A DNA stretch of 45,011 nucleotides from Escherichia phage JLBYU37, in the sequence record NC_073054.1; one strand, given 5' to 3'. The notes below the pieces were generated by a model. The model was not told the origin of the DNA, did no database searches, and saw nothing but the letters and a program-made list of their open reading frames with translations. Of this stretch, positions 1-45,011 are shown piece by piece. Within the stretch, counting starts at the first letter, position 1. Each line of letters opens with the position of its first letter. The position numbers were made by a program, and so were the translations under genes.

Positions 1-90
1 CCGCTTAGGCGCAACCAAGTAGATTAGCAACCAAGCCGAACGGGGTGGCTCATAATAACCCCGATACATGTGAAAATGAGGAATTGGAAA

Positions 91-3394: not shown

Positions 3395-3586
3395 ATGAAA
3401 GCAGAAATGAGCATTATGCGCGCTGGCGCGGCGGAAAACGACGAGATTCGAATCGTCATTAGACTGGAACGTGGCAAGACCATTACGGCACTTGTCACGC
3501 CTGAAAACCTGGCGCTGGCGCTAACCGGTCGATCGGATATACCGGTAGACCTTCGTCTGCGTAACGTGGAATTGCAAACTAAATGA
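3395..3586 (+). CDS. small hypothetical protein (63 aa)
   Basis: ATG 3395 with AGGAAG upstream; same frame as track ORF 3350-3586; stop overlaps the next ATG (ATGA). Confidence 0.4.
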   Translation: MKAEMSIMRAGAAENDEIRIVIRLERGKTITALVTPENLALALTGRSDIPVDLRLRNVELQTK

Positions 3587-3861
3587 CACCAGAAGGCAAG
3601 ATTCAAAGTCACCTGATGAGACGGGTGAAAGATGTTGGCGGATTCTGCCGCAAACTGGCATGGGAGGGGCGCGCAGGTGCGCCCGATCTGATTATCATCA
3701 TCAACGGCAAAATAGTGTTCGTCGAAGTGAAGCGCCCCGGAGGAAAACCGAAGCCGCACCAGGTACGTGAACATGAGCGGATGGCCCGCCGCGGCGCTGA
3801 CGTTCGCGTTATAGACAACATCGCCGACTGTGATTTATTGGTTGCTGAATTGGTCGCATAG
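3583..3861 (+). CDS. VRR-NUC family nuclease
   Basis: 92 aa; PD-(D/E)XK-type core DLIII...VFVEVKRPGG typical of VRR-NUC. Confidence 0.75.
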   Translation: MTPEGKIQSHLMRRVKDVGGFCRKLAWEGRAGAPDLIIIINGKIVFVEVKRPGGKPKPHQVREHERMARRGADVRVIDNIADCDLLVAELVA

Positions 3862-3901
3862 CGGTATAGTGTGCCGGTTAGCCATATCGAGGATTTTAGA
3901 G

Positions 3902-6772: not shown

Positions 6773-6773
6773 A

Positions 6774-6805
6774 TTGGTTGCATAATCATATTGGTTGCAC
6801 TATCT
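6774..6805 (+). promoter_or_regulatory. sigma70-like promoter built on two direct TTGGTTGCA copies
   Basis: TTGGTTGCA at 6774-6782 and 6791-6799; TTGCAT (6777-6782) N17 TATCTT (6800-6805). Feeds gene 6856. Confidence 0.45.
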
Positions 6806-6808
6806 TAA

Positions 6809-6838
6809 GGGTGTCCGGTTTGGACGCCCTTTTTTTTT
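6809..6838 (+). terminator. rho-independent terminator
   Basis: GGGTGTCC-ggtt-GGACGCCC hairpin followed by nine T. Confidence 0.7.
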
Positions 6839-6855
6839 AATATGAGGATTTGACG

Positions 6856-8230: not shown

Positions 8231-8697
8231 AACTACTGATTTGCGATTTGGATGGCGTTATTAACGGTTCAAGCGATGCGCGTGCCGACCTGGTGCCGGG
8301 GATAAAAACGAAATCAACCTTTTGGGTAAAGTGGCACAAAGCGCACGTTCGCGAAGACCTGAACATGGATATGCTGCCGCTACTGCGCATGTATCAAGAG
8401 CAAGGCTTCGAGATCGCGTATCTGACAAACCGGCAGCGCGAATGCTGGGACACCACCGCCGAGCAATTGGAAGTATTCCCCGTAGGGCGGTTGTTTATGC
8501 GCCACATGCTGGACGACACCCCGCCGCCAGAGTTTAAGGCGTGCGCCGTGTTCAAAATGGTCTGCTACGCGGACGTGTCAGAACTGGTCATCATTGAAGA
8601 CTGCCCGAAGAACATTGCAGCTATCCGTCGGGCGTGTAGCGATTTGGTCCCGAATATTTACGCAATAAACGTTGCGAAATTCACTTGCAACCAATAG
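8227..8697 (+). CDS. HAD-superfamily phosphatase-like protein
   Basis: 156 aa; N-terminal LICDLDGVIN resembles HAD motif I (DxDG). Confidence 0.5.
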   Translation: MKLLICDLDGVINGSSDARADLVPGIKTKSTFWVKWHKAHVREDLNMDMLPLLRMYQEQGFEIAYLTNRQRECWDTTAEQLEVFPVGRLFMRHMLDDTPPPEFKACAVFKMVCYADVSELVIIEDCPKNIAAIRRACSDLVPNIYAINVAKFTCNQ

Positions 8698-8714
8698 GTT
8701 GGTTGCACTATAGT
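8685..8714 (+). promoter_or_regulatory. palindromic operator TGCAACCAA-tagg-TTGGTTGCA overlapping a promoter
   Basis: Perfect 9-bp inverted repeat 8686-8694 / 8699-8707; TTGCAA (8685-8690) N18 TATAGT (8709-8714); upstream of gene 8760. Confidence 0.45.
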
Positions 8715-12344: not shown

Positions 12345-12361
12345 AGCTAAATCCTCATAAA

Positions 12362-12407
12362 TTGGTTGCAATCCTGGCTGAGCGGTGTAATACTAAAACT
12401 CAACCAA
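12362..12407 (+). promoter_or_regulatory. promoter/operator in the divergent region between tail fibre and lipoprotein genes
   Basis: TTGGTTGCA 12362-12370 supplies -35 TTGCAA (12366-12371); TAATAC at 12388-12393; inverted half-site CAACCAA at 12401-12407. Confidence 0.45.
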
Positions 12408-12424
12408 ATATAGGAGATGATACC

Positions 12425-12643
12425 ATGAAAACTTTAATTATGATTTGTGCGGTTCTTTTGTCCGGTTGCGCCGACATGCCCGCTAAAGTCTGCGACGCCA
12501 CATACCAGAATAGCGGCATGGATTATGTGGTCCCTGTGTATGGTGTTGCGGACTTCTCCGGGCATAAAATGCTAAGGGCGGGTTATCCGTTTAGCTTCCA
12601 GTACGTGTCGGTAGACCATTTCAAAAACACCACCTGCGAATAA
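12425..12643 (+). CDS. small lipoprotein (72 aa precursor), candidate receptor-blocking superinfection-exclusion protein
   Basis: AGGAG RBS; signal peptide MKTLIMICAVLLSGC with canonical lipobox; reverse orientation between tail genes. Confidence 0.6.
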   Translation: MKTLIMICAVLLSGCADMPAKVCDATYQNSGMDYVVPVYGVADFSGHKMLRAGYPFSFQYVSVDHFKNTTCE

Positions 12644-17710: not shown

Positions 17711-18441
17711 TCTGTTATATTCCCCGGTAGGTCTTTATGACGTACCCATTTAACCACATTGTCCCGGAAAAATCCTGACCGGAAGGGTATCACGCTCGAC
17801 AGACTGCCGTAGATATGGTGTAGGAGTTGGTTGCCTGGAAGGAATATCCCGGCGTGGTTAGGCACTGGCGCGCTAATCTGCATGATGACCATCGCCCCCG
17901 GCGTATTCTCCTCGCATTCCCTGAATCCAGCGCCGTACCAGTTATCCATATACAGATTTTCGCCTGTCTCCCACCAGTTATACGGCACGCGGAAGTCTGG
18001 CAAATTTACTCCCTGCTTTTTGTGCCAGTCCATGACGAGGCCGTAACAATCCGTAATTCCGAGAACAAATCGGCGGCCTACCAGCGGCGGGTCTTCCGGG
18101 TCAATCTCAATAAAGTCGCCATATTCGTTAGTGATGGTCCACACTACGCCGCTGCCGTTGCATCCGTTAACGTCGCCCAGTGAGGGGGTTAACTCGCGCT
18201 GACCTGGGTGTGAGTGGACTACGCGCACGACGTCGCCCATATCCTCGGCATCCATCCAGGCCATATCACTAATCGTAAAAGCGTCTTTGCGGGAGCGCAC
18301 GCCGGTCGGGTCTTCGAATACGTTCAGACATGGTACGAACACTTGCTTACGACCCACCATGACAACCAGGCCACAGGCTTCTTCCGGCAGACACGCCGCG
18401 ACGTGTGCGGCGATATCGCTTTTAACCTTTTTCGTTAACAT
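17701..18441 (-). CDS. tail tip assembly protein (gpK-like, JAMM/MPN plus NlpC/P60-like)
   Basis: 246 aa; VVHSHPG metalloprotease-like motif; synteny. Confidence 0.7.
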   Translation of the reverse strand: MLTKKVKSDIAAHVAACLPEEACGLVVMVGRKQVFVPCLNVFEDPTGVRSRKDAFTISDMAWMDAEDMGDVVRVVHSHPGQRELTPSLGDVNGCNGSGVVWTITNEYGDFIEIDPEDPPLVGRRFVLGITDCYGLVMDWHKKQGVNLPDFRVPYNWWETGENLYMDNWYGAGFRECEENTPGAMVIMQISAPVPNHAGIFLPGNQLLHHIYGSLSSVIPFRSGFFRDNVVKWVRHKDLPGNITEWQ

Positions 18442-22506: not shown

Positions 22507-22569
22507 TATGCAGTCCCCTTTTTTATGCAGTTGCCGATGGATATTGTATCAGCGATTTCAAAACAAACC

Positions 22570-22890
22570 TTATTCAGTCTCAGACGAGGGGAGCCATTGA
22601 CCCCCGTCTAGTCTGAAAGACTGGGGTGCTATCCCGCTGTCCCGATCGGCTGAAAACCGCGGCAGCACTGGCGGGGATGGGGTGCTGTCCCGTTTTGTCC
22701 CGCCCCTTGTTTGTCCCGCTTTCTGTCCCGCTTACTTTATGCAATAAAACTGCATAGGTATGCACATTTACAGGGCGTGACAAAACGGGACGTCCCGCCT
22801 GTCCCGCTTTGAGTTTATGCAATGAAAGTGATTAGATATGCGGTTTTACAGAGGCGGGACAAAACGGGACGTCCCGCCTGTCCCGCTTCA
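22570..22890. repeat. non-coding iteron-rich element, copy 1 (between GT chaperone and tape measure genes)
   Basis: 22570-22756 is ~90% identical to 39025-39211. Multiple GTCCCGC/TGTCCCG half-sites; 31-bp direct repeat GACAAAACGGGACGTCCCGCCTGTCCCGCTT at 22779 and 22857; 12-bp palindrome CGGGACGTCCCG at 22786-22797 and 22865-22876. Confidence 0.75.
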
Positions 22891-26456: not shown

Positions 26457-27557
26457 TTAAGACACGGTAGTCGCCGTCAGCGTAACCAGTACGCCAGCGG
26501 TTTCCTTGATGTGACGGGTCGGCACTGCCTGTGCTGCCTGGGTCTTACGACGGCCTTTAGTATCGCCATCCCCCACAGCGCCAACATCCTGCACGGTTGC
26601 CGGTGCGTTGTCTACCTGGCCCTGGTCCAGTTCCCAGTTAGCGGAAGTGGTGATATCGTCCAGCTTGAACGAGCGGACGCCTTCGATCGGTGTACGAGCG
26701 GACGCCTTCAGACGGTAGCCTTTAACAGCCACGTTGAAGTCGAACTCGCCCTGCCACCAGCGTTCGATGTTCTCGTTACCGCCTTTCTCCTGCGCCAGCA
26801 TATCGAGGCCGTTGGTGGTAACTGCAACCGCGCCAGGGACCAGACCCAGCATGTTGCCCGCACCCATAGCATCGGCAGCGGCATCGGAGATAATGAAACG
26901 ACGGCCCAGGCCATCACCCATTACCTGGAGATCGCCAATTGCGAATACCTGTTCAGCGGAAGGGAGTGCCTGGTACGCGATGAAGTTTGCCCAGGTAACG
27001 CCGTCCATAAACCAGGACTTAATCAAAGACGCCTGATCGCCGAACTTAGAAGCCGCCAGCGGGAAGTCTGCCAGGGTCGGGAAGGTACGACCGCCAACGC
27101 CGTCAACGCGCGCCGGTTGGGTGTATTTTGCCTCTGCGTTGCTTTCGATCGCCGCTTTACCCGCACCGATACCCGCTTTCAGGTAGTGCAGCATAATCGC
27201 TTGAGTGGCCTGCGCCGCAATCTCAGCCGCAACGCTGTTAACGTTGGTTTCGATCTTAGCCATCATAGCCTTAGTGATCGCTACCGGACCCACTTTCGCG
27301 GATAGGTTAACGGAGTTGGTCAGCATACGCGCCAGCACTTTAGCGGTTGCCGGAGTACCGACAGGGGCGTAGGCGTTACGGTCGGTAACGAGGTTGGCGA
27401 TCAAGCCTACGGACATTTTTTCTACAACATCCTTCAGCACTTCACCAGTACCGAGAACAACAGCGCCATTGGCGGCAGCGTTGAATACGTTCAGGTTGTC
27501 GGGGATCATTTGCGTAACCGCGGTAACGAGTTTACGCTGGAACACTGTTAAAGACAT
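26457..27557 (-). CDS. major capsid protein
   Basis: 366 aa directly downstream of the scaffold gene and followed by a terminator; Ala/Gly/Val-rich composition. Confidence 0.75.
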   Translation of the reverse strand: MSLTVFQRKLVTAVTQMIPDNLNVFNAAANGAVVLGTGEVLKDVVEKMSVGLIANLVTDRNAYAPVGTPATAKVLARMLTNSVNLSAKVGPVAITKAMMAKIETNVNSVAAEIAAQATQAIMLHYLKAGIGAGKAAIESNAEAKYTQPARVDGVGGRTFPTLADFPLAASKFGDQASLIKSWFMDGVTWANFIAYQALPSAEQVFAIGDLQVMGDGLGRRFIISDAAADAMGAGNMLGLVPGAVAVTTNGLDMLAQEKGGNENIERWWQGEFDFNVAVKGYRLKASARTPIEGVRSFKLDDITTSANWELDQGQVDNAPATVQDVGAVGDGDTKGRRKTQAAQAVPTRHIKETAGVLVTLTATTVS

Positions 27558-27654
27558 ATCGAAATCCTTTGAGTTGTGAGCATTCGCCCAGTGACGTTAA
27601 TGTTACCTTAGATTTACGCGCTAGCAAAATCGCCCGCTTTCGCGGGCGGTCTTC

Positions 27655-28356
27655 CTACTCGTCGCCCATCTTAGCGATGATTTCACCAGCCTGTTTCGTA
27701 AGGTCAGTGATACCGAAGCTGTGGCCCATCGTGATTTTCGACTTCACATCTTCGACAACCTGCGTCGGTTTGCTAGGCGCGCCGCCTGCTGGCGTGCCAG
27801 CCAGGACGGACGCAAAATCGGCGTTATTACGGAACTCTTTTTCAAGTTCTTCCATAGTCAGCGCGGACGGTTTGCCATCCTGCAAGACACGCACTTTCAA
27901 GCTGCCGTCTTCGCCGTCTTCCAGCGTCAGGCGGTCCATTACGTGGCGTTGCATGATGCCCGCATTCTTACCGAACAGCTTCGACGCCAGGTCTTTGGCA
28001 GCGCTGCCGATGGTTAGATCGTGGATCTGCTTGCGGTAGGCTTCGATTTTTCCCGATGTGTCTGCTTCGTGTTTCGCAAACTTATCTTTCCAGGACTTGT
28101 CGATCGCTTCGAGGTCGCCATTTTTGCGCGCGGCGGCTTCCTCTTTCTCTTTCGCAAGGCGCTCAGCTTCGGCGCGGCGTTCAGCTTCTGCTTTCTTCTC
28201 GCTCACCAGCTTCGCGTTGTTGTCTTTCAGACCCTTGATTTCCGCCTGTACTTCTTCCGCGGTCATGAACGTTGATTTATACCCGTCGCCATCGGCAACA
28301 AAAAGCGCCTTCATACCTTCCGGCAACGCGTCATATTCTGCTTTGGTAAGTTTCAT
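27655..28356 (-). CDS. capsid scaffolding protein
   Basis: Track ORF 27655-28647; likely start ATG 28356 (MKLTKAEYDALPEG) with AGGGGGA RBS; helical E/K/A-rich; upstream of the capsid gene. Confidence 0.6.
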   Translation of the reverse strand: MKLTKAEYDALPEGMKALFVADGDGYKSTFMTAEEVQAEIKGLKDNNAKLVSEKKAEAERRAEAERLAKEKEEAAARKNGDLEAIDKSWKDKFAKHEADTSGKIEAYRKQIHDLTIGSAAKDLASKLFGKNAGIMQRHVMDRLTLEDGEDGSLKVRVLQDGKPSALTMEELEKEFRNNADFASVLAGTPAGGAPSKPTQVVEDVKSKITMGHSFGITDLTKQAGEIIAKMGDE

Positions 28357-28446
28357 GCTATCCCCCTGGGATTGTGGCAGAGCGGGCCACCCGCTCGACT
28401 TCACGCCTCTAATATTATCAGTGATAAAAATAATCGCAAAATTCGC

Positions 28447-28490
28447 TTGCAATCCGGGTGTTGGTTGCATATATTGGTTGCACACCAACC
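28447..28490 (+). promoter_or_regulatory. sigma70-like promoter with two TTGGTTGCA copies and a GGTTG-cacac-CAACC palindrome at the start site
   Basis: TTGCAA (28447-28452) N17 TATATT (28470-28475); motif at 28461-28469 and 28474-28482; palindrome 28476-28490; GAGGA RBS 7 nt before ATG 28505. Confidence 0.6.
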
Positions 28491-28504
28491 ACGAGGACAC
28501 ATAA

Positions 28505-29269
28505 ATGAGACTGACAAAAGACATTAAAAACCAGATTCTGGCTAACATACTGCGCGACCACGAAATCGCAACCGAAGCCAAATCAATCATGATGGACTCT
28601 CGAAATCTGGCGTACGCCATTACGCTTGACTGTATGCCGGAAGGCATTCATTCGTTCGCCGAGCTACGTGAGCGCATTGAAGCAATCGGCGATGACCCGT
28701 CGCAGATGTACGGCGTCTGTGTGTACACCAACAAGGCGACGTATAGATATGACGCCGACGCCCCATATGGTATCGGCAGCGTTTACGACGCCACTTTCGA
28801 AATCAACGCAGGCGGAAACGTCCGTACCATGTCATTGAGCGGAGACGGACACCGATCCCGAGTACATCGCGGATACTGGGAGTATAAATACATGAATAAA
28901 CTGTCTCCCGATCTCGGCGATATTGTGCCAGGGTATGAGGAAATTTTGTTAGCGGCAGTGTGCGAAGTCGACGACGACGGGAAAGCGCTGCCGATATATA
29001 AGCCACGCGGTCGTATAGACTACCCGGCTGGTCATGATTTATGCAAGCGCCTGGACCGTAACGACAAGGCCCGCCGTGAGTTGCGTGCTAAGTATGACGC
29101 GTTCAAACTAACTGTTACCGGCGTGCTGGATATGCACAATACAGATAAGAAGCTGATCAAGGCGTGGCCTGAAGTTGAACAGTTCATTCCTTACCCGGAC
29201 AAGCCGAAGTCCACGGCGGTGGCGCTGGACGTGAAAACACTAAACGAGATTTGCGGTATCCCGCGCTAA
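28505..29269 (+). CDS. hypothetical protein (254 aa), reverse-oriented moron in the head module
   Basis: Strong RBS and own promoter; opposite strand to all neighbouring structural genes; no motif recognised; flanked by a bidirectional terminator. Confidence 0.6.
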   Translation: MRLTKDIKNQILANILRDHEIATEAKSIMMDSRNLAYAITLDCMPEGIHSFAELRERIEAIGDDPSQMYGVCVYTNKATYRYDADAPYGIGSVYDATFEINAGGNVRTMSLSGDGHRSRVHRGYWEYKYMNKLSPDLGDIVPGYEEILLAAVCEVDDDGKALPIYKPRGRIDYPAGHDLCKRLDRNDKARRELRAKYDAFKLTVTGVLDMHNTDKKLIKAWPEVEQFIPYPDKPKSTAVALDVKTLNEICGIPR

Positions 29270-29275
29270 CGAAAA

Positions 29276-29305
29276 GGGGGCCATCACTGCCCCCGAATTA
29301 TTTTC
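29276..29305. terminator. bidirectional hairpin terminator
   Basis: GGGGGC-catcact-GCCCCC flanked by A/T-rich runs on both sides; between moron (+) and o-spanin (-). Confidence 0.5.
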
Positions 29306-29514
29306 TGCAACTCCAGCACTTGCGCCCGCAGCTTCGCACCACACTCCATATTTTTAACATCAACCAGCAAATCTTCGTCTGGATCTGCCGAGGCATTCTC
29401 AAAGGTGCAAGGTGGCCTATAGACCGACTCGGTTAGCGGCGTCGATGGCACGTTGCTTGATCCGCACGCGCTCATCATCAAAACTGCAATCAGGACGGTT
29501 AGGACGCGTAACAT
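29284..29514 (-). CDS. candidate o-spanin (outer-membrane lipoprotein), overlapped architecture
   Basis: 76 aa; signal LTVLIAVLMMSACGS with lipobox-like Cys; starts inside the i-spanin-like ORF in another frame and extends past it. Confidence 0.45.
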   Translation of the reverse strand: MLRVLTVLIAVLMMSACGSSNVPSTPLTESVYRPPCTFENASADPDEDLLVDVKNMECGAKLRAQVLELQKIIRGQ

Positions 29515-29755
29515 ATTTCACAACCTCTTTCGTGATAGTCCGGTATTCCACATCGCGGGCCTGTTCGGCCTGCACTGCCCCCTCGACAACCTTAGTTTGC
29601 TGCCGTTGGGCTTTCGCTTGCGCTTCTTGCGCCGCTCTCGCCTCAACGCCAGTGCGGTAGGAATCACCCTGCCAGAATCCAACCGCCAGGCCGATAACCA
29701 ATCCAATCGCTGCGTATTTAATCACGCCATAACCCCCGGTTTTTAAGCTGTGCAA
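29417..29755 (-). CDS. candidate i-spanin
   Basis: 112 aa; N-terminal TM helix IKYAAIGLVIGLAVGFW then Ala/Gln-rich helical region. Confidence 0.45.
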   Translation of the reverse strand: MHSLKTGGYGVIKYAAIGLVIGLAVGFWQGDSYRTGVEARAAQEAQAKAQRQQTKVVEGAVQAEQARDVEYRTITKEVVKYVTRPNRPDCSFDDERVRIKQRAIDAANRVGL

Positions 29756-30821
29756 TAGTCATTAATTCGCCCGTATCGGTGAACATCTTCGGCACTTTCA
29801 CGCCTCGCATAATCTGATCGGCGCGCTGCACCCCATATAATTCCTCCAGAATATGGCGCGGCTGGCGCTGCACCCATGAGAAGAAATCAGTCTGCGCGTC
29901 GACCTGCTCACTCAGCAATCTGCCTGCGTCAGCCTTCAGTGCCGGACGCTTACCACTGGGCCAATCTTCCATACCTTTGACTTTCCACGTCTCCGTCGAA
30001 CGGCAGCAATAATGCAGCTTGCCCGGACCAGCGCCATATTGTGATCCCGCCACCACTTTCCCGCCGCGTTTTCCTTTGGTGTCGGGAGTGACGTCAACAG
30101 GATAAAACAGGCGATCGCGTAGCTGGCACATAGGGGAAGTATGAGTGTCCAATGTGGCCAACCATTGGCGACCTTCGAGAATATCGTCATTAGCTTTCAC
30201 CATTAATTCGCGGGCGGTCGCCGCATAGTGGTTGACAGCGGACTTAACAACGCTTGAGATTGCTTGCGCACTACGACCGCCGAGCGCGCGCCTCACGTCC
30301 GCGATAATTTCCATAGTCGGCTTGCCCTGGATGAATCCGGCGCGCACCTGATTGCCGATCTGCGTCCTTGTCCACTCTGAAAGTGAATCCGGCCATTGCA
30401 TCATGGTGTTACCCTGGAACGGGTTTTTCATCGCAGTCGCTGCGATCTGCGCGCCTGTTACTACCCCCACCACCTCGACCGCAGGTACGGCGACCACCGG
30501 CTGGATCGCTGCCGTTAATGTGTCGGCGAGATAATCGGCCTCGGTGTCGGCAAACTCCTGAAGGCTTTCAGCCAGCGCCTTAAACTCGGTGCGCAGTTCT
30601 GTTTTAACGGTCTTGTCGAGTTGCGTTAACAGAGTGGTAAGTGCCTTGTTGTTCATGGACTTTTTGCCATCAAGTAACTCGGTCAGCTTACCCAGTAACG
30701 TGGGCCGGAACTTCTCCCACATAGCCAGCACCCGCCGCGCCTGGTCATTACTCAGGCGCTGGGTGAAGATGTGTCGGCGAATCATTCGATCCGCCATATA
30801 TTGATTAATTGTCTTCGCCAT
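29718..30821 (-). CDS. head morphogenesis protein (Mu gpF / SPP1 gp7-like)
   Basis: 367 aa; WLATLDTHTSPMCQLRDRLFY motif; directly after the portal gene. Confidence 0.75.
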   Translation of the reverse strand: MAKTINQYMADRMIRRHIFTQRLSNDQARRVLAMWEKFRPTLLGKLTELLDGKKSMNNKALTTLLTQLDKTVKTELRTEFKALAESLQEFADTEADYLADTLTAAIQPVVAVPAVEVVGVVTGAQIAATAMKNPFQGNTMMQWPDSLSEWTRTQIGNQVRAGFIQGKPTMEIIADVRRALGGRSAQAISSVVKSAVNHYAATARELMVKANDDILEGRQWLATLDTHTSPMCQLRDRLFYPVDVTPDTKGKRGGKVVAGSQYGAGPGKLHYCCRSTETWKVKGMEDWPSGKRPALKADAGRLLSEQVDAQTDFFSWVQRQPRHILEELYGVQRADQIMRGVKVPKMFTDTGELMTIAQLKNRGLWRD

Positions 30822-34294: not shown

Positions 34295-34402
34295 ATGCGC
34301 CGACCATCGGCAACATAGGAGACGGCCCTGCCATCTAAGGGGATTATAACAGGCACAAAAAAGCCCACCAAATCGGCAGGCTGGGAGGCTTATGGGTTGC
34401 CG

Positions 34403-35545: not shown

Positions 35546-35606
35546 ATTAATTTACTTCCAGATTGAGATGACCTGGATGCAATATACCACGGTACTGGGG
35601 CAATAA

Positions 35607-38100: not shown

Positions 38101-38231
38101 TGTTCTGTCTCCTCGATCTCGTCAATTGCTTTTGTGTCGCCATCGCATACCGTAGCGATGCCGTTTTGTTCGTAGTCAAGTACGCACATATGCAGGTCGA
38201 TAAACGCCTGCGATATTCCGTCTAAGAACAT
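38097..38231 (-). CDS. small acidic hypothetical protein (44 aa)
   Basis: GGGAGA RBS 7 nt upstream of ATG 38231; stop coupled by ATGA to gene 37546-38100; overlaps the end of ORF 38222-38497. Confidence 0.3.
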   Translation of the reverse strand: MFLDGISQAFIDLHMCVLDYEQNGIATVCDGDTKAIDEIEETEQ

Positions 38232-38497
38232 TTGCTCAGTCTCCCGTGTTTGCCCACCCGCTCAATGGCGGGCTTCTGGCGTAATGTAATACGTATTCCC
38301 ATTGGTTGCAAGGAAGTCCGCACCCTGAAATCGTGTTGTGCTGCGAACTGGTGTAAGTAGCGAGTCTGCGTCAACGGCTTTACGTCGTCGCGATAGCACC
38401 AGAATACCGATTCGCCCTCAACTGCATTCTCAGCCCATATTCGTATGCAATGCAGGGGAATATGCCACGAAAGCTGTTTTGCTCGCCTACGGCCCAT
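38222..38497 (-). CDS. hypothetical protein (91 aa)
   Basis: AAGGGG RBS directly after the stop of gene 38507-38812. Confidence 0.4.
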   Translation of the reverse strand: MGRRRAKQLSWHIPLHCIRIWAENAVEGESVFWCYRDDVKPLTQTRYLHQFAAQHDFRVRTSLQPMGIRITLRQKPAIERVGKHGRLSKCS

Positions 38498-38506
38498 TTT
38501 GGCCCC

Positions 38507-38812
38507 TTATTTCGCAAGCTGGGTGAATAGCTCACGCTGGGCTTTAATCCGGGCGACGTTTGTCACTGCCTTATCGCCAATACCGAAGCGATATGCCAGG
38601 CGCTCGCGGGAGAATGCACGCGCGTATTCGTGGATTGCCTTCGCCAGCGTCTTCAGTTCGTCAAGGCTGGCATCCATGCCGTCGAGCGCATACATGATTG
38701 CCTGCTGGGCCAGTATTACTACATGCGCCGCGCGGTCTGCGTTGCCGTTCAGAGCCTTCGCTTCGTCCAGCTTCGCCAGGGCCATTGCGTAATTCCAGAT
38801 TAATGCTCTCAT
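38507..38812 (-). CDS. hypothetical helical protein (101 aa), first gene of the minus-strand operon
   Basis: GAGGA RBS; preceded by the motif-bearing promoter at 38824-38880. Confidence 0.5.
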   Translation of the reverse strand: MRALIWNYAMALAKLDEAKALNGNADRAAHVVILAQQAIMYALDGMDASLDELKTLAKAIHEYARAFSRERLAYRFGIGDKAVTNVARIKAQRELFTQLAK

Positions 38813-38823
38813 CGTTCAGTCCT

Positions 38824-38880
38824 CATGTTGGTGTGCAACCAATATAGCAAGGTGCCAGGGCGAATGCAACCAATATTAAT
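38824..38880 (-). promoter_or_regulatory. sigma70-like promoter with two motif copies (minus strand)
   Basis: On minus strand TTGCAT (plus 38864-38869) N17 TATATT (plus 38841-38846) followed by GGTTGCACACCAAC, same cassette as at 28470-28489; TGCAACCAA at 38834-38842 and 38865-38873. Confidence 0.55.
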
Positions 38881-39024
38881 CACGCGCATGAAAAAGTTGA
38901 TCGCTATCTGCTGTGACTGCAAACTGCGTTTTTCACTCCGCATAATGCAACCCGCATTGGTTGCCTAGTTCATCGACGACCGCTCTTCGCATCATGCTGC
39001 CGTGTATTTTGCAATCTCCAGATT

Positions 39025-39211
39025 TTATTCAGTCTCAGACGAGGGGGGCCACTGACCCCCGTCTAGTCTGAAAGACTGGGGTGCTGTCCCGCTGTCCCGC
39101 TCCTCTGGAAGCCGCGTCATCCGGGGCGGGACGGGGGTGCTGTCCCGCTTTGTCCCGCCCCTTGTTTGTCCCGCTTTTTGTCCCGCTTACTTTATGCAAT
39201 AAAACTGCATA
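39025..39211. repeat. non-coding iteron-rich element, copy 2 (beside the primase-helicase gene)
   Basis: ~90% identical to 22570-22756; GTCCCGC half-sites at 10-16 bp spacing; inverted GCGGGAC...GTCCCGC pair; followed by A/T-rich stretch 39190-39235. Confidence 0.75.
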
Positions 39212-39271
39212 ACTATTCATTATATCTACACTACACGGCAACCAATGCGATATAGATTTAATGCTCAATCT

Positions 39272-39352
39272 GGCAACCAATACGCGCACAAATTAATCGT
39301 TTAGCGATATGGGAATTCCCATATCGGCAACCAATACGCGCAAATTTTAATC
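39272..39352 (+). repeat. two ~28 bp direct repeats GGCAACCAATACGCGCA(C)AAATT(T)TAATC
   Basis: Copies at 39272-39299 and 39326-39352, 54 bp apart; second copy overlaps the primase-helicase stop codon. Confidence 0.6.
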
Positions 39353-41621: not shown

Positions 41622-41951
41622 TTACTTAGAAGTTTTATTATTGCGTACCCAGGAGCGCACTGTGCTCTGATTAATTCCGGTCAACTCGGCAATCATCGCC
41701 CAGGATTTGCCCTCGGCGCGCAAACGGATAACCTGTTTTTTGTATTCTTCCATTTCTTCATTGTGCTTTTGCAGCTTGCTTGCTGCCGTGCCGTTGAGCA
41801 ATTCCAGCCTGGCGCGTAATTCTTTTTCGACACTGCGCAGTCGTTCGATTTCAAATAATACAGCCCCCACGGCATCGGTATATGCCCATGACCGGCTTGT
41901 CTCACTGCTAACAGTCTTCGTTAACATTTCGATTGCGTCGTTTACATTCAT
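41622..41951 (-). CDS. small HTH DNA-binding regulator (109 aa)
   Basis: C-terminal helix-turn-helix SWAMIAELTGINQSTVRSWVRNN; N-terminal coiled coil; GGGGG RBS; divergent from the early promoter region. Confidence 0.55.
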   Translation of the reverse strand: MNVNDAIEMLTKTVSSETSRSWAYTDAVGAVLFEIERLRSVEKELRARLELLNGTAASKLQKHNEEMEEYKKQVIRLRAEGKSWAMIAELTGINQSTVRSWVRNNKTSK

Positions 41952-41965
41952 TGTTCTGCCCCCAG

Positions 41966-41980
41966 TTGGTTAATGACCAA
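41966..41980. promoter_or_regulatory. palindromic operator TTGGT-taatg-ACCAA upstream of the HTH regulator gene
   Basis: Inverted repeat 15-29 nt upstream of the regulator start codon; same TTGGT half-site as the dispersed motif. Confidence 0.4.
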
Positions 41981-42024
41981 TGAAACTACACCTAAAACCG
42001 CAGGGTGTCAACTCCTCTGGAATA

Positions 42025-42053
42025 TTGAAACGGGCGCGCACGCGTGTAATAAT
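42025..42053 (+). promoter_or_regulatory. sigma70-like promoter TTGAAA-N16/17-TAATAA(T)
   Basis: TTGAAA at 42025-42030, TG then TAATAAT at 42045-42053; transcripts would run into the terminator at 42083-42118. Confidence 0.5.
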
Positions 42054-42082
42054 ACTCCCGTCTCATTGTCTCTTATTGGTTA

Positions 42083-42118
42083 GCGCCGTCGCATTTTGCT
42101 TCGGCGCTTTTTTTTTTT
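42083..42118 (+). terminator. strong rho-independent terminator
   Basis: GCGCCG-13 nt loop-CGGCGC followed by 11 consecutive T. Confidence 0.7.
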
Positions 42119-42129
42119 GAAATTAGTTG

Positions 42130-42158
42130 TTGACTCCCTTCTGCAACCAATCTAATAT
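42130..42158 (+). promoter_or_regulatory. near-consensus sigma70 promoter of the plus-strand early operon
   Basis: TTGACT (42130-42135) N17 TAATAT (42153-42158); TGCAACCAA motif at 42142-42150 inside the spacer. Confidence 0.6.
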
Positions 42159-42218
42159 TCACTCCGTCGACAGGGCATACCGCCCGGACACCTAAACTTA
42201 ACCAATCGGAGATATACC

Positions 42219-44776: not shown

Positions 44777-45011
44777 AGTATTCGCAATCTTATTGATGTT
44801 TTTGCTCGGCGCGCTGGGTTTTATTCTGCATTGCGTACAAGGCGTATTAATGGTGGCGTGGATGATTCGACATCCGACCCGCTGGCTGGACGACGGTTAT
44901 AGCGACGCTGCCGTCGACTGGGTGGAGAGGAATATCGACCGCCCGCCGTTAAGCTGGATCGAGAACGCTACCAACTACGTGACCAGAAATCTTTTTAATA
45001 AAAGTGCTTGA
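44769..45011 (+). CDS. small membrane protein (80 aa)
   Basis: Hydrophobic helix pair AILLMFLLGALGFILHC...LMVAWMI; ends at the last base of the window. Confidence 0.45.
   Translation: MNKVFAILLMFLLGALGFILHCVQGVLMVAWMIRHPTRWLDDGYSDAAVDWVERNIDRPPLSWIENATNYVTRNLFNKSA

Follow-up and report, generated by a model that had tools for sequence, protein, structure and literature searches.

In phage lambda, Cro and CI act at two operator regions (OR/OL) made of 17-bp dyads, and in phage T4 the MotA boxes, always centred at -30, replace the -35 element of middle promoters. Iteron plasmids carry direct repeats together with an inverted repeat at the promoter of their own Rep protein. Here we describe a dispersed word in the complete genome of Escherichia phage JLBYU37 (NC_073054.1; all 45,011 nucleotides, called the window), a Dhillonvirus of the HK578-like E. 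coli siphophages that appears to be virulent. The word, ATTGGTTGC followed by A or C, is in excess over chance, lies in intergenic DNA and promoter cores, is selectively conserved, and co-occurs with an early protein whose helix-turn-helix (HTH) is invariant. Most likely, it reflects conventional control by a phage operator and its regulator, previously undescribed for dhillonviruses. Within that frame we tentatively favour the reading, built on the sequence, that ATTGGTTGC(A/C) is the operator of the HTH protein encoded at 41622-41951, which would turn down early and middle transcription, including its own, in the manner of Cro.

Two further families of sites invite comparison. The operator and "stoperator" sites of mycobacteriophage L5 gp71 (Brown et al. 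1997, cited in PMC11447400) are asymmetric, number some 20-30 copies concentrated in short intergenic regions and contain a -35-like hexamer; they all point the same way with respect to transcription and affect elongation, and gp71 is the immunity repressor of a temperate phage. The JLBYU37 motif shares with these sites their copy number, asymmetry, intergenic concentration and embedded -35 (one L5 copy overlaps the -35 of an early promoter), and differs from them in breaking the single-orientation rule, with 12 intergenic copies sense and 5 antisense to local transcription, and in being locked to promoter cores. The T1-like phage TLS carries an unexplained 21-nt direct repeat, aaATAGCACnnnTTGnTAAAA, at 21 sites, which has been proposed to be regulatory (PMC11447400). 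It resembles our motif in being scattered through the intergenic DNA of a virulent E. coli siphophage dependent on the host RNA polymerase; it differs in being of unrelated sequence and from another phage family, and the JLBYU37 copies are placed precisely in promoter cores and come with a candidate regulator.

A first, sequence-only reading of the window had flagged the promoter at 28447-28490 and listed copies of TTGGTTGCA at 6774, 6791, 8686 (minus), 8699, 12362, 28461, 28474, 38302, 38834 (minus), 38865 (minus) and 42142 (minus), all of which proved exact. These 11 copies compare with 0.50 expected, and none of 100 dinucleotide shuffles reached 11. The core of the word is ATTGGTTGC, the most over-represented 9-mer in the window (14 copies against 0.42 expected), and its shorter form TTGGTTGC occurs 20 times. 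The additional TTGGTTGC sites, at 11 and 27 (both minus), 3838 and 38957 (plus), 39238, 39273 and 39327 (minus) and, inside genes, at 17827 and 21176 (plus), had been overlooked because a final A was demanded. Position 0 is A in 13 of the 17 intergenic or gene-end copies, and at position 9 there is an A in 10 copies and a C in 4; the flanks outside positions 0-9 hold little information, and the longer 13-mer ATATTGGTTGCAC has perfect matches at 6788, 28471 and 38833 (minus). Fifteen of the 20 TTGGTTGC copies fall in non-coding DNA, which makes up 8.6% of the sequence (binomial P about 1e-12), and two more lie inside the final 25 nt of a gene.

Dyad symmetry is present in a minority of sites. 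The palindromes at 41966-41980 and 28474-28488 are genuine, and TTGGT-N5-ACCAA occurs three times against 0.01 expected. At 38947-38965, where a further palindrome had been proposed, the inverted pair exists but is imperfect (GCAACC-cgca-TTGGTTGC). Apart from the three TTGGT-N5-ACCAA palindromes and one tail-to-tail palindrome, most copies stand alone or form direct repeats whose spacing varies. When IMG/VR was scanned for exact matches to paired copies, the matches listed were mostly unrelated tandem coding repeats, uninformative on lineage specificity.

We drew ten sigma-70-type promoters, all with spacers of 17-18 bp (Table 1); in nine of them a motif copy or variant lies within the interval from -40 to +17, and about 14 of the 17 intergenic copies lie within promoter cores scattered over the genome. 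Three of the ten (8685, 28447 and 42130) were independently recovered by a generic scan for 9 of 12 consensus bases, whose genome-wide tally was not above chance and which by itself is no proof. Across the nine promoters the motif takes the positions -40/-32, -21/-13, -10/+3 and +1/+17. The first register (-40 to -32) holds four forward copies, each with the motif A exactly 28 bp 5' of the -10 element; the second, the 9 bp directly 5' of the -10, is filled in six promoters in either orientation; the third, over the -10 and start site, is used at P28447, P38869 and P_SSB and, by a variant palindrome, at P_HTH. In promoters with a TTGAC -35 (P2, P_SSB and P_HTH) the motif is confined to the spacer or +1.

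These registers bear on what the motif could be. The proposal that it is a phage-specific promoter consensus does not suffice as the sole explanation: only four copies supply a -35, the rest lying in spacers (in either orientation), at -10/+1 or in the promoter-poor region 39238-39335, and promoters with a canonical TTGAC -35 carry it too. Nor can each forward copy serve as the -35 of a tandem promoter of its own, an idea that fails at 6791, 8699, 28461, 28474 and 38835, which lack a -10 at a distance of 16-18 bp. The copy at 42142 is better read as a reversed copy in the spacer of TTGACT-17-TAATAT, a plus-strand promoter, than as a minus-strand -35. A phage's own flavour of sigma-70 promoter, an extended -35 or UP-like consensus that needs no dedicated binder, would account for the forward copies that put TTGCA at the right distance from the -10 in four promoters, preceded by A/T-rich bases. 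We consider it very improbable: most copies are elsewhere than at the -35, being reversed, in the spacer, past the -10 or in promoters that already have TTGAC, and ATTGGTTGC is invariant while the final two bases of the would-be -35 drift. The positions of the copies already largely refute it. The motif is more than a -35 consensus and behaves as an operator would.

The marked genes had been described as accessory. Instead, the motif stands at essentially every early and middle promoter, and the units so marked are the SSB/polymerase, helicase, first early and HTH-primase operons, the long minus-strand operon at its head, and the genes cor and Nmad5. The other part of that proposal has held up well, namely that the family is tied to sigma-70-like promoters; its promoter-core location and selective conservation would fit one regulon under a phage regulator.

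Conservation was examined in alignments of homologous regions from full genomes (Envy, Gluttony and CHD5UKE2) and IMG/VR dhillonvirus contigs, with 11-16 relatives. In eight intergenic regions 114 of 128 motif columns were invariant, compared with 451 of 888 other columns (odds ratio 7.9, Fisher P 6e-18), a contrast that holds within alignments of related, not phylogenetically independent, genomes. Individual sites show the same pattern. In 15 sequences neither copy of the 6773/6790 pair changes, nor does the 17-bp spacing of the two, whereas the seven intervening bases appear in seven forms. At P2, TGCAACCAATC is invariant in 15 sequences, and the remaining spacer varies, as does the -10 (TAATAT, TATCAT or TATTAT). 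P38869 keeps both copies, with an almost free 17-bp spacer and a -10 of TATATT or TAGATT among relatives, and 19 of 20 motif columns are conserved at P_SSB. The last two bases of the would-be -35 vary (TTGCAT, TTGCGT, TTGCAG, TTGCAC), and the upstream ATTGG is constant.

The pattern extends to two metagenomic relatives with about 72% identity over about half their length and a different gene content. ATTGGTTGC is still their top 9-mer, with 12 and 8 copies in 20 kb, and the layouts recur: paired copies at the late-operon promoter, a pair spaced by 17 bp 5' of a terminator, reversed copies in tandem within the P2 spacer, the palindrome 5' of the HTH gene and the cluster after the helicase-primase gene. 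These comparisons support the view that the motif is under selection. They bear equally on the notion that duplication of promoter cassettes left it behind as a passive relic, now without function. P28447 and P38869 can indeed be aligned and have a 20-nt block, TATATTGGTTGCACACCAAC, in common; yet the motif is invariant amid diverging bases at at least 14 separate sites, also in the genomes of about 72% identity, and we find a relic barely credible.

As to the protein that might read the motif, the earlier suggestion of the 109-aa HTH protein stands, since this was the sole recognisable DNA-binding candidate found and TTGGT-N5-ACCAA lies at its own promoter. Its residues 65-105 score above the Pfam thresholds for HTH_23, HTH_28 and Sigma70_r4_2; no DNA-binding domain was recognisable in 19 other proteins scanned, mostly small early or middle proteins lacking an assigned function. 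PHROGs labels the family "transposase" and GenBank labels it transposase, resolvase or Gam inhibitor, names that are without evidential basis. The protein is restricted to dhillonviruses (153 records). Across 20 clusters no change is seen in its C-terminal 62 residues, which contain the recognition helix STVRSWVRN; its N-terminal 45 residues are hypervariable. Some phages have a second, type-II allele at the locus, of 142-169 aa and 47% identical, which keeps S-T-[VI]-R-x-W. The N-terminal hypervariability and the second allele suggest diversifying selection or module swapping on what may be a partner-binding or sensing domain. An AF2 model (pLDDT 87) consists of a short helix, a 59-residue helix and the C-terminal HTH.

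Alternatively, the motif might be a binding site for a host E. coli protein, exploited by the phage. Two host readings offered themselves. CytR half-sites of the form GTTGCATT partly resemble some copies, and the sigma-54 promoter consensus is TGGCAC-N5-TTGCW, with GG and GC 10 nt apart. Both were rejected. The bases conserved are those of ATTGGTTGC, not GTTGCATT, and variation begins after GTTGC; GG-to-GC distances, whether inside one copy or from copy to copy, are 4, 8 or 17 nt, not 10, and the TGGCAC-like spacer of P38869 is not conserved. The motif moreover co-occurs with the lineage-restricted phage HTH protein, and we regard a host site as very improbable.

In the reading that we favour, essentially all early and middle sigma-70-type promoters contain one or two copies of ATTGGTTGC(A/C) as part of their core (-40 to +17). 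The HTH protein would be made early from a canonical promoter, TTGACA-17-TAGTTT, one of three canonical promoters in the divergent control region that holds its gene. It would return to that promoter through the TTGGT-N5-ACCAA palindrome at +1 and would also bind other promoters at the -35, in the spacer beside the -10 or at the start site. Binding would occlude RNA polymerase and so give a Cro-like turn-down of early and middle transcription together with autoregulation; late genes, with motif-free intergenic regions, would be unaffected and still transcribed. We infer that the promoters fire, that the HTH protein binds the motif and that its binding represses. Turn-down is the likeliest effect because the motif registers overlap RNA polymerase contacts and most promoters have two copies. 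The resemblance to lambda Cro/CI lies in a small early HTH protein encoded beside divergent early promoters, in sites over the -35, -10 and +1, in a dyad at the regulator's own promoter and in the expected early turn-down. The differences are that some ten promoters genome-wide, instead of two operator regions, are involved, that the sites are mostly single asymmetric 9-mers in either orientation rather than 17-bp dyads, that the phage is apparently virulent, and that the modelled protein is a long helix with a C-terminal HTH and not a Cro or CI fold.

Several points weigh against this reading. In the searchable literature we found neither binding nor transcription-start nor expression data on any dhillonvirus, and no description of promoters, motif or regulator in these phages. 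An asymmetric site with spacings of 9, 13-17, 31, 35 and 54 bp in both orientations is unusual for a simple dimeric repressor; asymmetry, mixed orientation and variable spacing would fit better with monomer-like or flexibly linked binding than with a rigid dimer. Four copies occupy precisely the position expected for an activator of the class-II or MotA type. Phages with the type-II allele keep the motif and lack the palindrome at the HTH gene promoter, and autoregulation is therefore not universal. A Foldseek search of the model against the PDB gave only local generic HTH matches (LuxR/GerE, DeoR and resolvase C-terminal domains; best E 0.79) and no global match. Recognition helix and motif are both unchanged in all homologues and phages, a co-occurrence without co-variation that leaves the comparison powerless. 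The kinship of the aligned genomes belongs on the same side.

The four copies in the -35 register are the starting point for an alternative in which the same or another early protein is an activator as well, recruiting RNA polymerase at P3842, P6778, P12366 and P38869 and repressing at P2, P_SSB and P_HTH. This would be a temporal switch in the style of phi29 p4, lambda CII or T4 MotA, with middle promoters marked by a weak TTGCNN -35. The -35 of those four promoters is merely TTGC plus two free bases, at the fixed 28-bp distance; where the -35 is a canonical TTGAC, motif copies are limited to the spacer or +1, and the HTH protein matches a sigma-70 region-4 profile. As in T4, a phage word would take the place of the -35, its distance to an ordinary -10 being fixed, but only 4 of about 17 intergenic copies are in that register, and no match to the MotA or AsiA family was found among 20 proteins scanned. 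Most of the four promoters carry another copy as well, within the spacer or across the start site, which is awkward for pure activation, and TTGCAA or TTGCAT with a 17-bp spacer and TATATT or TATAGT scores 9/12 and should fire unaided. We see this dual role as possible but unlikely.

A different set of sites lies outside clear promoters. Just 3' of the helicase-primase gene, in a promoter-poor region, three direct copies of ATTGGTTGCC stand 35 and 54 bp apart, the last of them 13 bp 5' of a TATAAT at 39219-39224. The 39327 copy is part of an indel present in some relatives only; two to four ATTGGTTGCC copies are also clustered 3' of the helicase-primase gene in the relatives L042 and L044. A perfect 20-bp palindrome, GATATGGGAATTCCCATATC, lies at 39306-39325 between two of the copies and likewise belongs to an indel found in some relatives only. 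Such a cluster could mean that the protein is mainly an origin-binding or helicase-loading factor, with the 9-mer as its box as for DnaA or Rep, the region 39238-39335 as its main target, and with autoregulation and coupling as the tasks of the promoter sites and of the inverted repeat at its own promoter. The HTH gene lies directly 5' of the helicase-primase gene, with which it would be co-transcribed, the cluster is conserved, direct repeats combined with an inverted repeat at the gene's own promoter recall iteron plasmids, and an asymmetric box in both orientations at variable spacing, clustered by replication genes and also present in promoters, recalls DnaA boxes. There is no sequence or protein homology to those systems, however, and about 14 of 17 intergenic copies are in dispersed promoter cores and not at one origin. 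The window also holds a better iteron candidate, and a replication organiser seems to us distinctly unlikely.

That candidate is GCGGGACA, which occurs in 13 exact copies, 12 of them in clusters at 22638-22886 and 39085-39186 and nearly all on the minus strand. The clusters lie within a direct repeat of about 200 bp (22560-22886 and 39030-39225) whose halves also share TATGCAGTTTTATTGCATAAAGTAAGCGGGACA and a hairpin. One of them adjoins the 3' side of the helicase-primase gene, in a layout resembling P4 ori/crr. By our analysis these repeats would be a better candidate for origin iterons than the ATTGGTTGCC cluster.

The functions need not be exclusive. It is conceivable, though we rate it as speculative and rather unlikely, that one sigma-region-4-like HTH protein reads the 9-bp box in any orientation, by the logic of DnaA boxes, for early shut-off, for -35 substitution at middle promoters and for marking of origin-proximal DNA, with late genes transcribed from extended -10 promoters, all in a virulent siphophage without RNA-polymerase modifiers. 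If true, a large group of E. coli phages in wide use would have a temporal programme that is both complete and minimal. The late strand is of interest in this respect. Its intergenic regions contain terminators and no motif copies; after terminators and before late genes there are extended -10 elements without a -35, TGgTATATT, TGtTATAAT and TGaTAATAT, on the minus strand at about 35575-35585, 34340-34350 and 28412-28422. These may form a distinct, -35-independent class of late promoters.

We also considered that the palindromes act as hairpins in the 5' mRNA and rejected this: predicted starts fall inside the palindromes, their 5' arms would be left untranscribed, and no Rfam family applies. 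An Rfam scan of the genome gave 0 matches, and a tRNA scan was likewise negative.

Few E. coli siphophages are commoner in collections than dhillonviruses (more than 150 genomes), which are used in therapy-oriented and defence-system studies. With a promoter and operator map and one candidate regulator, their unmapped early-to-late switch becomes directly testable. The map also corrects the transposase, resolvase and "Gam" annotations and offers compact regulator-controlled promoters for phage engineering. The gain is one of coverage and not of principle, since an operator/regulator system is conceptually conventional.

The gene order of JLBYU37 is as in phage Envy, and the region 27000-30000 is 94-96% identical to more than 130 Dhillonvirus genomes (e.g. 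Envy, Gluttony and GeorgBuechner). Its record was opened directly 3' of a stop codon, and P_SSB spans both ends. The genes served by the promoters, and the remaining copies and variants, are included in Table 1.

Table 1. Motif copies, promoters, genes and gene blocks in the window (coordinates of NC_073054.1; promoter assignments are predictions)
Feature	Position	Strand	Details
P_SSB	-35 at 45008-45011 + 1-2; -10 at 20-25		-35 TTGACC; -10 TAGATT
P_SSB motif	11-34	minus	TTGGTTGC 11-18 fills spacer to -10; 27-34 begins 1 nt past -10
P3842	3837-3870	plus	ATTGGTTGC 3837-3845 gives -35 TTGCTG; -10 TATAGT 3865-3870; inside final 25 nt of gene 3583-3861, 5' of Lar-like and helicase genes
P3842 spacer	3849-3857		variant copy ATTGGTCGC
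P6778	6773-6806	plus	ATTGGTTGCA 6773-6782 gives -35 TTGCAT; -10 TATCTT 6801-6806
P6778 second copy	6790-6799		fills spacer
P8685	8685-8714	plus	palindrome TGCAACCAA-tagg-TTGGTTGCA 8686-8707; reversed copy gives -35 TTGCAA, forward copy fills spacer; -10 TATAGT 8709-8714; gene 8760 downstream
P12366	12361-12394	plus	ATTGGTTGCA 12361-12370 gives -35 TTGCAA; -10 TGtAATACT ends 12394; cor-like lipoprotein gene 12425-12643
P28447 (site flagged first)	28447-28488	plus	-35 TTGCAA 28447-28452, outside any copy; -10 TATATT 28470-28475; Nmad5-domain gene 28505-29269
P28447 copy 1	28461-28469		fills spacer
P28447 copy 2	28473-28482		ATTGGTTGCA, overlaps -10/+1; palindrome TTGGTTGCACACCAA at 28474-28488
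P38869	38828-38874	minus	copy 38865-38874 gives -35 TTGCAT; -10 TATATT 38841-38846; heads long minus-strand operon, first gene 38507-38812
P38869 second copy	38834-38843		overlaps -10/+1; yields palindrome 38828-38842
P_HTH	41966-42011	minus	-35 TTGACA 42006-42011; -10 TAGTTT 41983-41988
P_HTH motif	41966-41980		variant palindrome TTGGTTAATGACCAA, about +1 to +17, 5' of HTH gene
P1	42025, -10 ends 42053	plus	TTGAAA-17-TGtAATAAT; variant copy 24 nt past -10, in transcript
P1 variant copy	42075-42083	plus	ATTGGTTAG, within short P1 transcript and terminator
P2	42130-42158	plus	-35 TTGACT; -10 TAATAT 42153-42158; serves operon from 42219
P2 motif	42142-42151		reversed copy TGCAACCAAT, fills spacer
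Variant copy	42198-42206	minus	ATTGGTTAA, beside ribosome-binding site of gene 42219
Intragenic copy	38301-38310	plus	ATTGGTTGCA, antisense in gene 38222-38491; kept in relatives with different flanks
Inverted pair, imperfect	38956-38964 / 38946-38952	plus / minus	ATTGGTTGC facing GGTTGCA; no clear promoter
Cluster of three direct copies	39238-39246, 39273-39281, 39327-39335	minus	ATTGGTTGCC; just 3' of helicase-primase gene
Candidate regulator gene, 109 aa	41622-41951	minus	long helix residues 21-79; C-terminal HTH residues 84-107
Early/replication block	42219 across sequence ends to 9899	plus	
HTH gene and helicase-primase pair	41951-39347	minus	
Long block	38812 down to 9927	minus	small genes, lysis, terminase, head, tail
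Two inserts in the long block	12425 (12425-12643); 28505 (28505-29269)	plus	cor-like lipoprotein gene; Nmad5-domain gene; both interrupt the minus-strand block

Motif copies missing here are found in relatives, at 14400-14460 in L042, 13960-14020 in L044 and 14254-14300 in L004. One of them is followed by a GCATCCTG...CAGGATGC hairpin, and another is a pair beside a bidirectional terminator past the lysis genes. Regulon membership therefore varies among dhillonviruses.

The divergent control region has further conserved features. P1 meets a strong terminator (about 42082-42120) within about 60 nt, and the whole unit (42025-42120) is near-invariant in 15 relatives. Its short transcript contains ATTGGTTAGC. 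The unit has no Rfam match and may produce a small early RNA or an attenuated leader just 5' of P2. Most relatives have a conserved insertion of about 135 nt between P2 and the first early gene (about 9640-9780 in L010, corresponding to the interval between 42174 and 42187 here). The insertion is absent from this genome and from L012, L005, L004 and L016 and has no Rfam match; a structured leader and a tiny gene are both conceivable.

Upstream of P38869, a block of about 45 bp (38880-38930, minus strand; CAGCAGATAGCGATCAACTTTTTCATGCGCGTGATTAAT) is near-invariant in relatives and has an IHF-like ATCAA-N4-TT core. It may be an extra upstream control element of the long minus-strand operon. At 6801-6840 the -10 of P6778 directly adjoins the hairpin (6807-6831, with a T-run) that terminates the upstream operon, a compact overlap kept even in L042, a relative of 72% identity. 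Transcripts from P6778 would start inside the 5' arm of this hairpin and so escape termination. Finally, the centre of the 22-bp palindrome at 8686-8707, TGCAACCAA-TAGG-TTGGTTGCA, reads CCTA in Envy and Gluttony, that is, the whole palindrome is flipped, as if by a hairpin- or recombination-mediated inversion.

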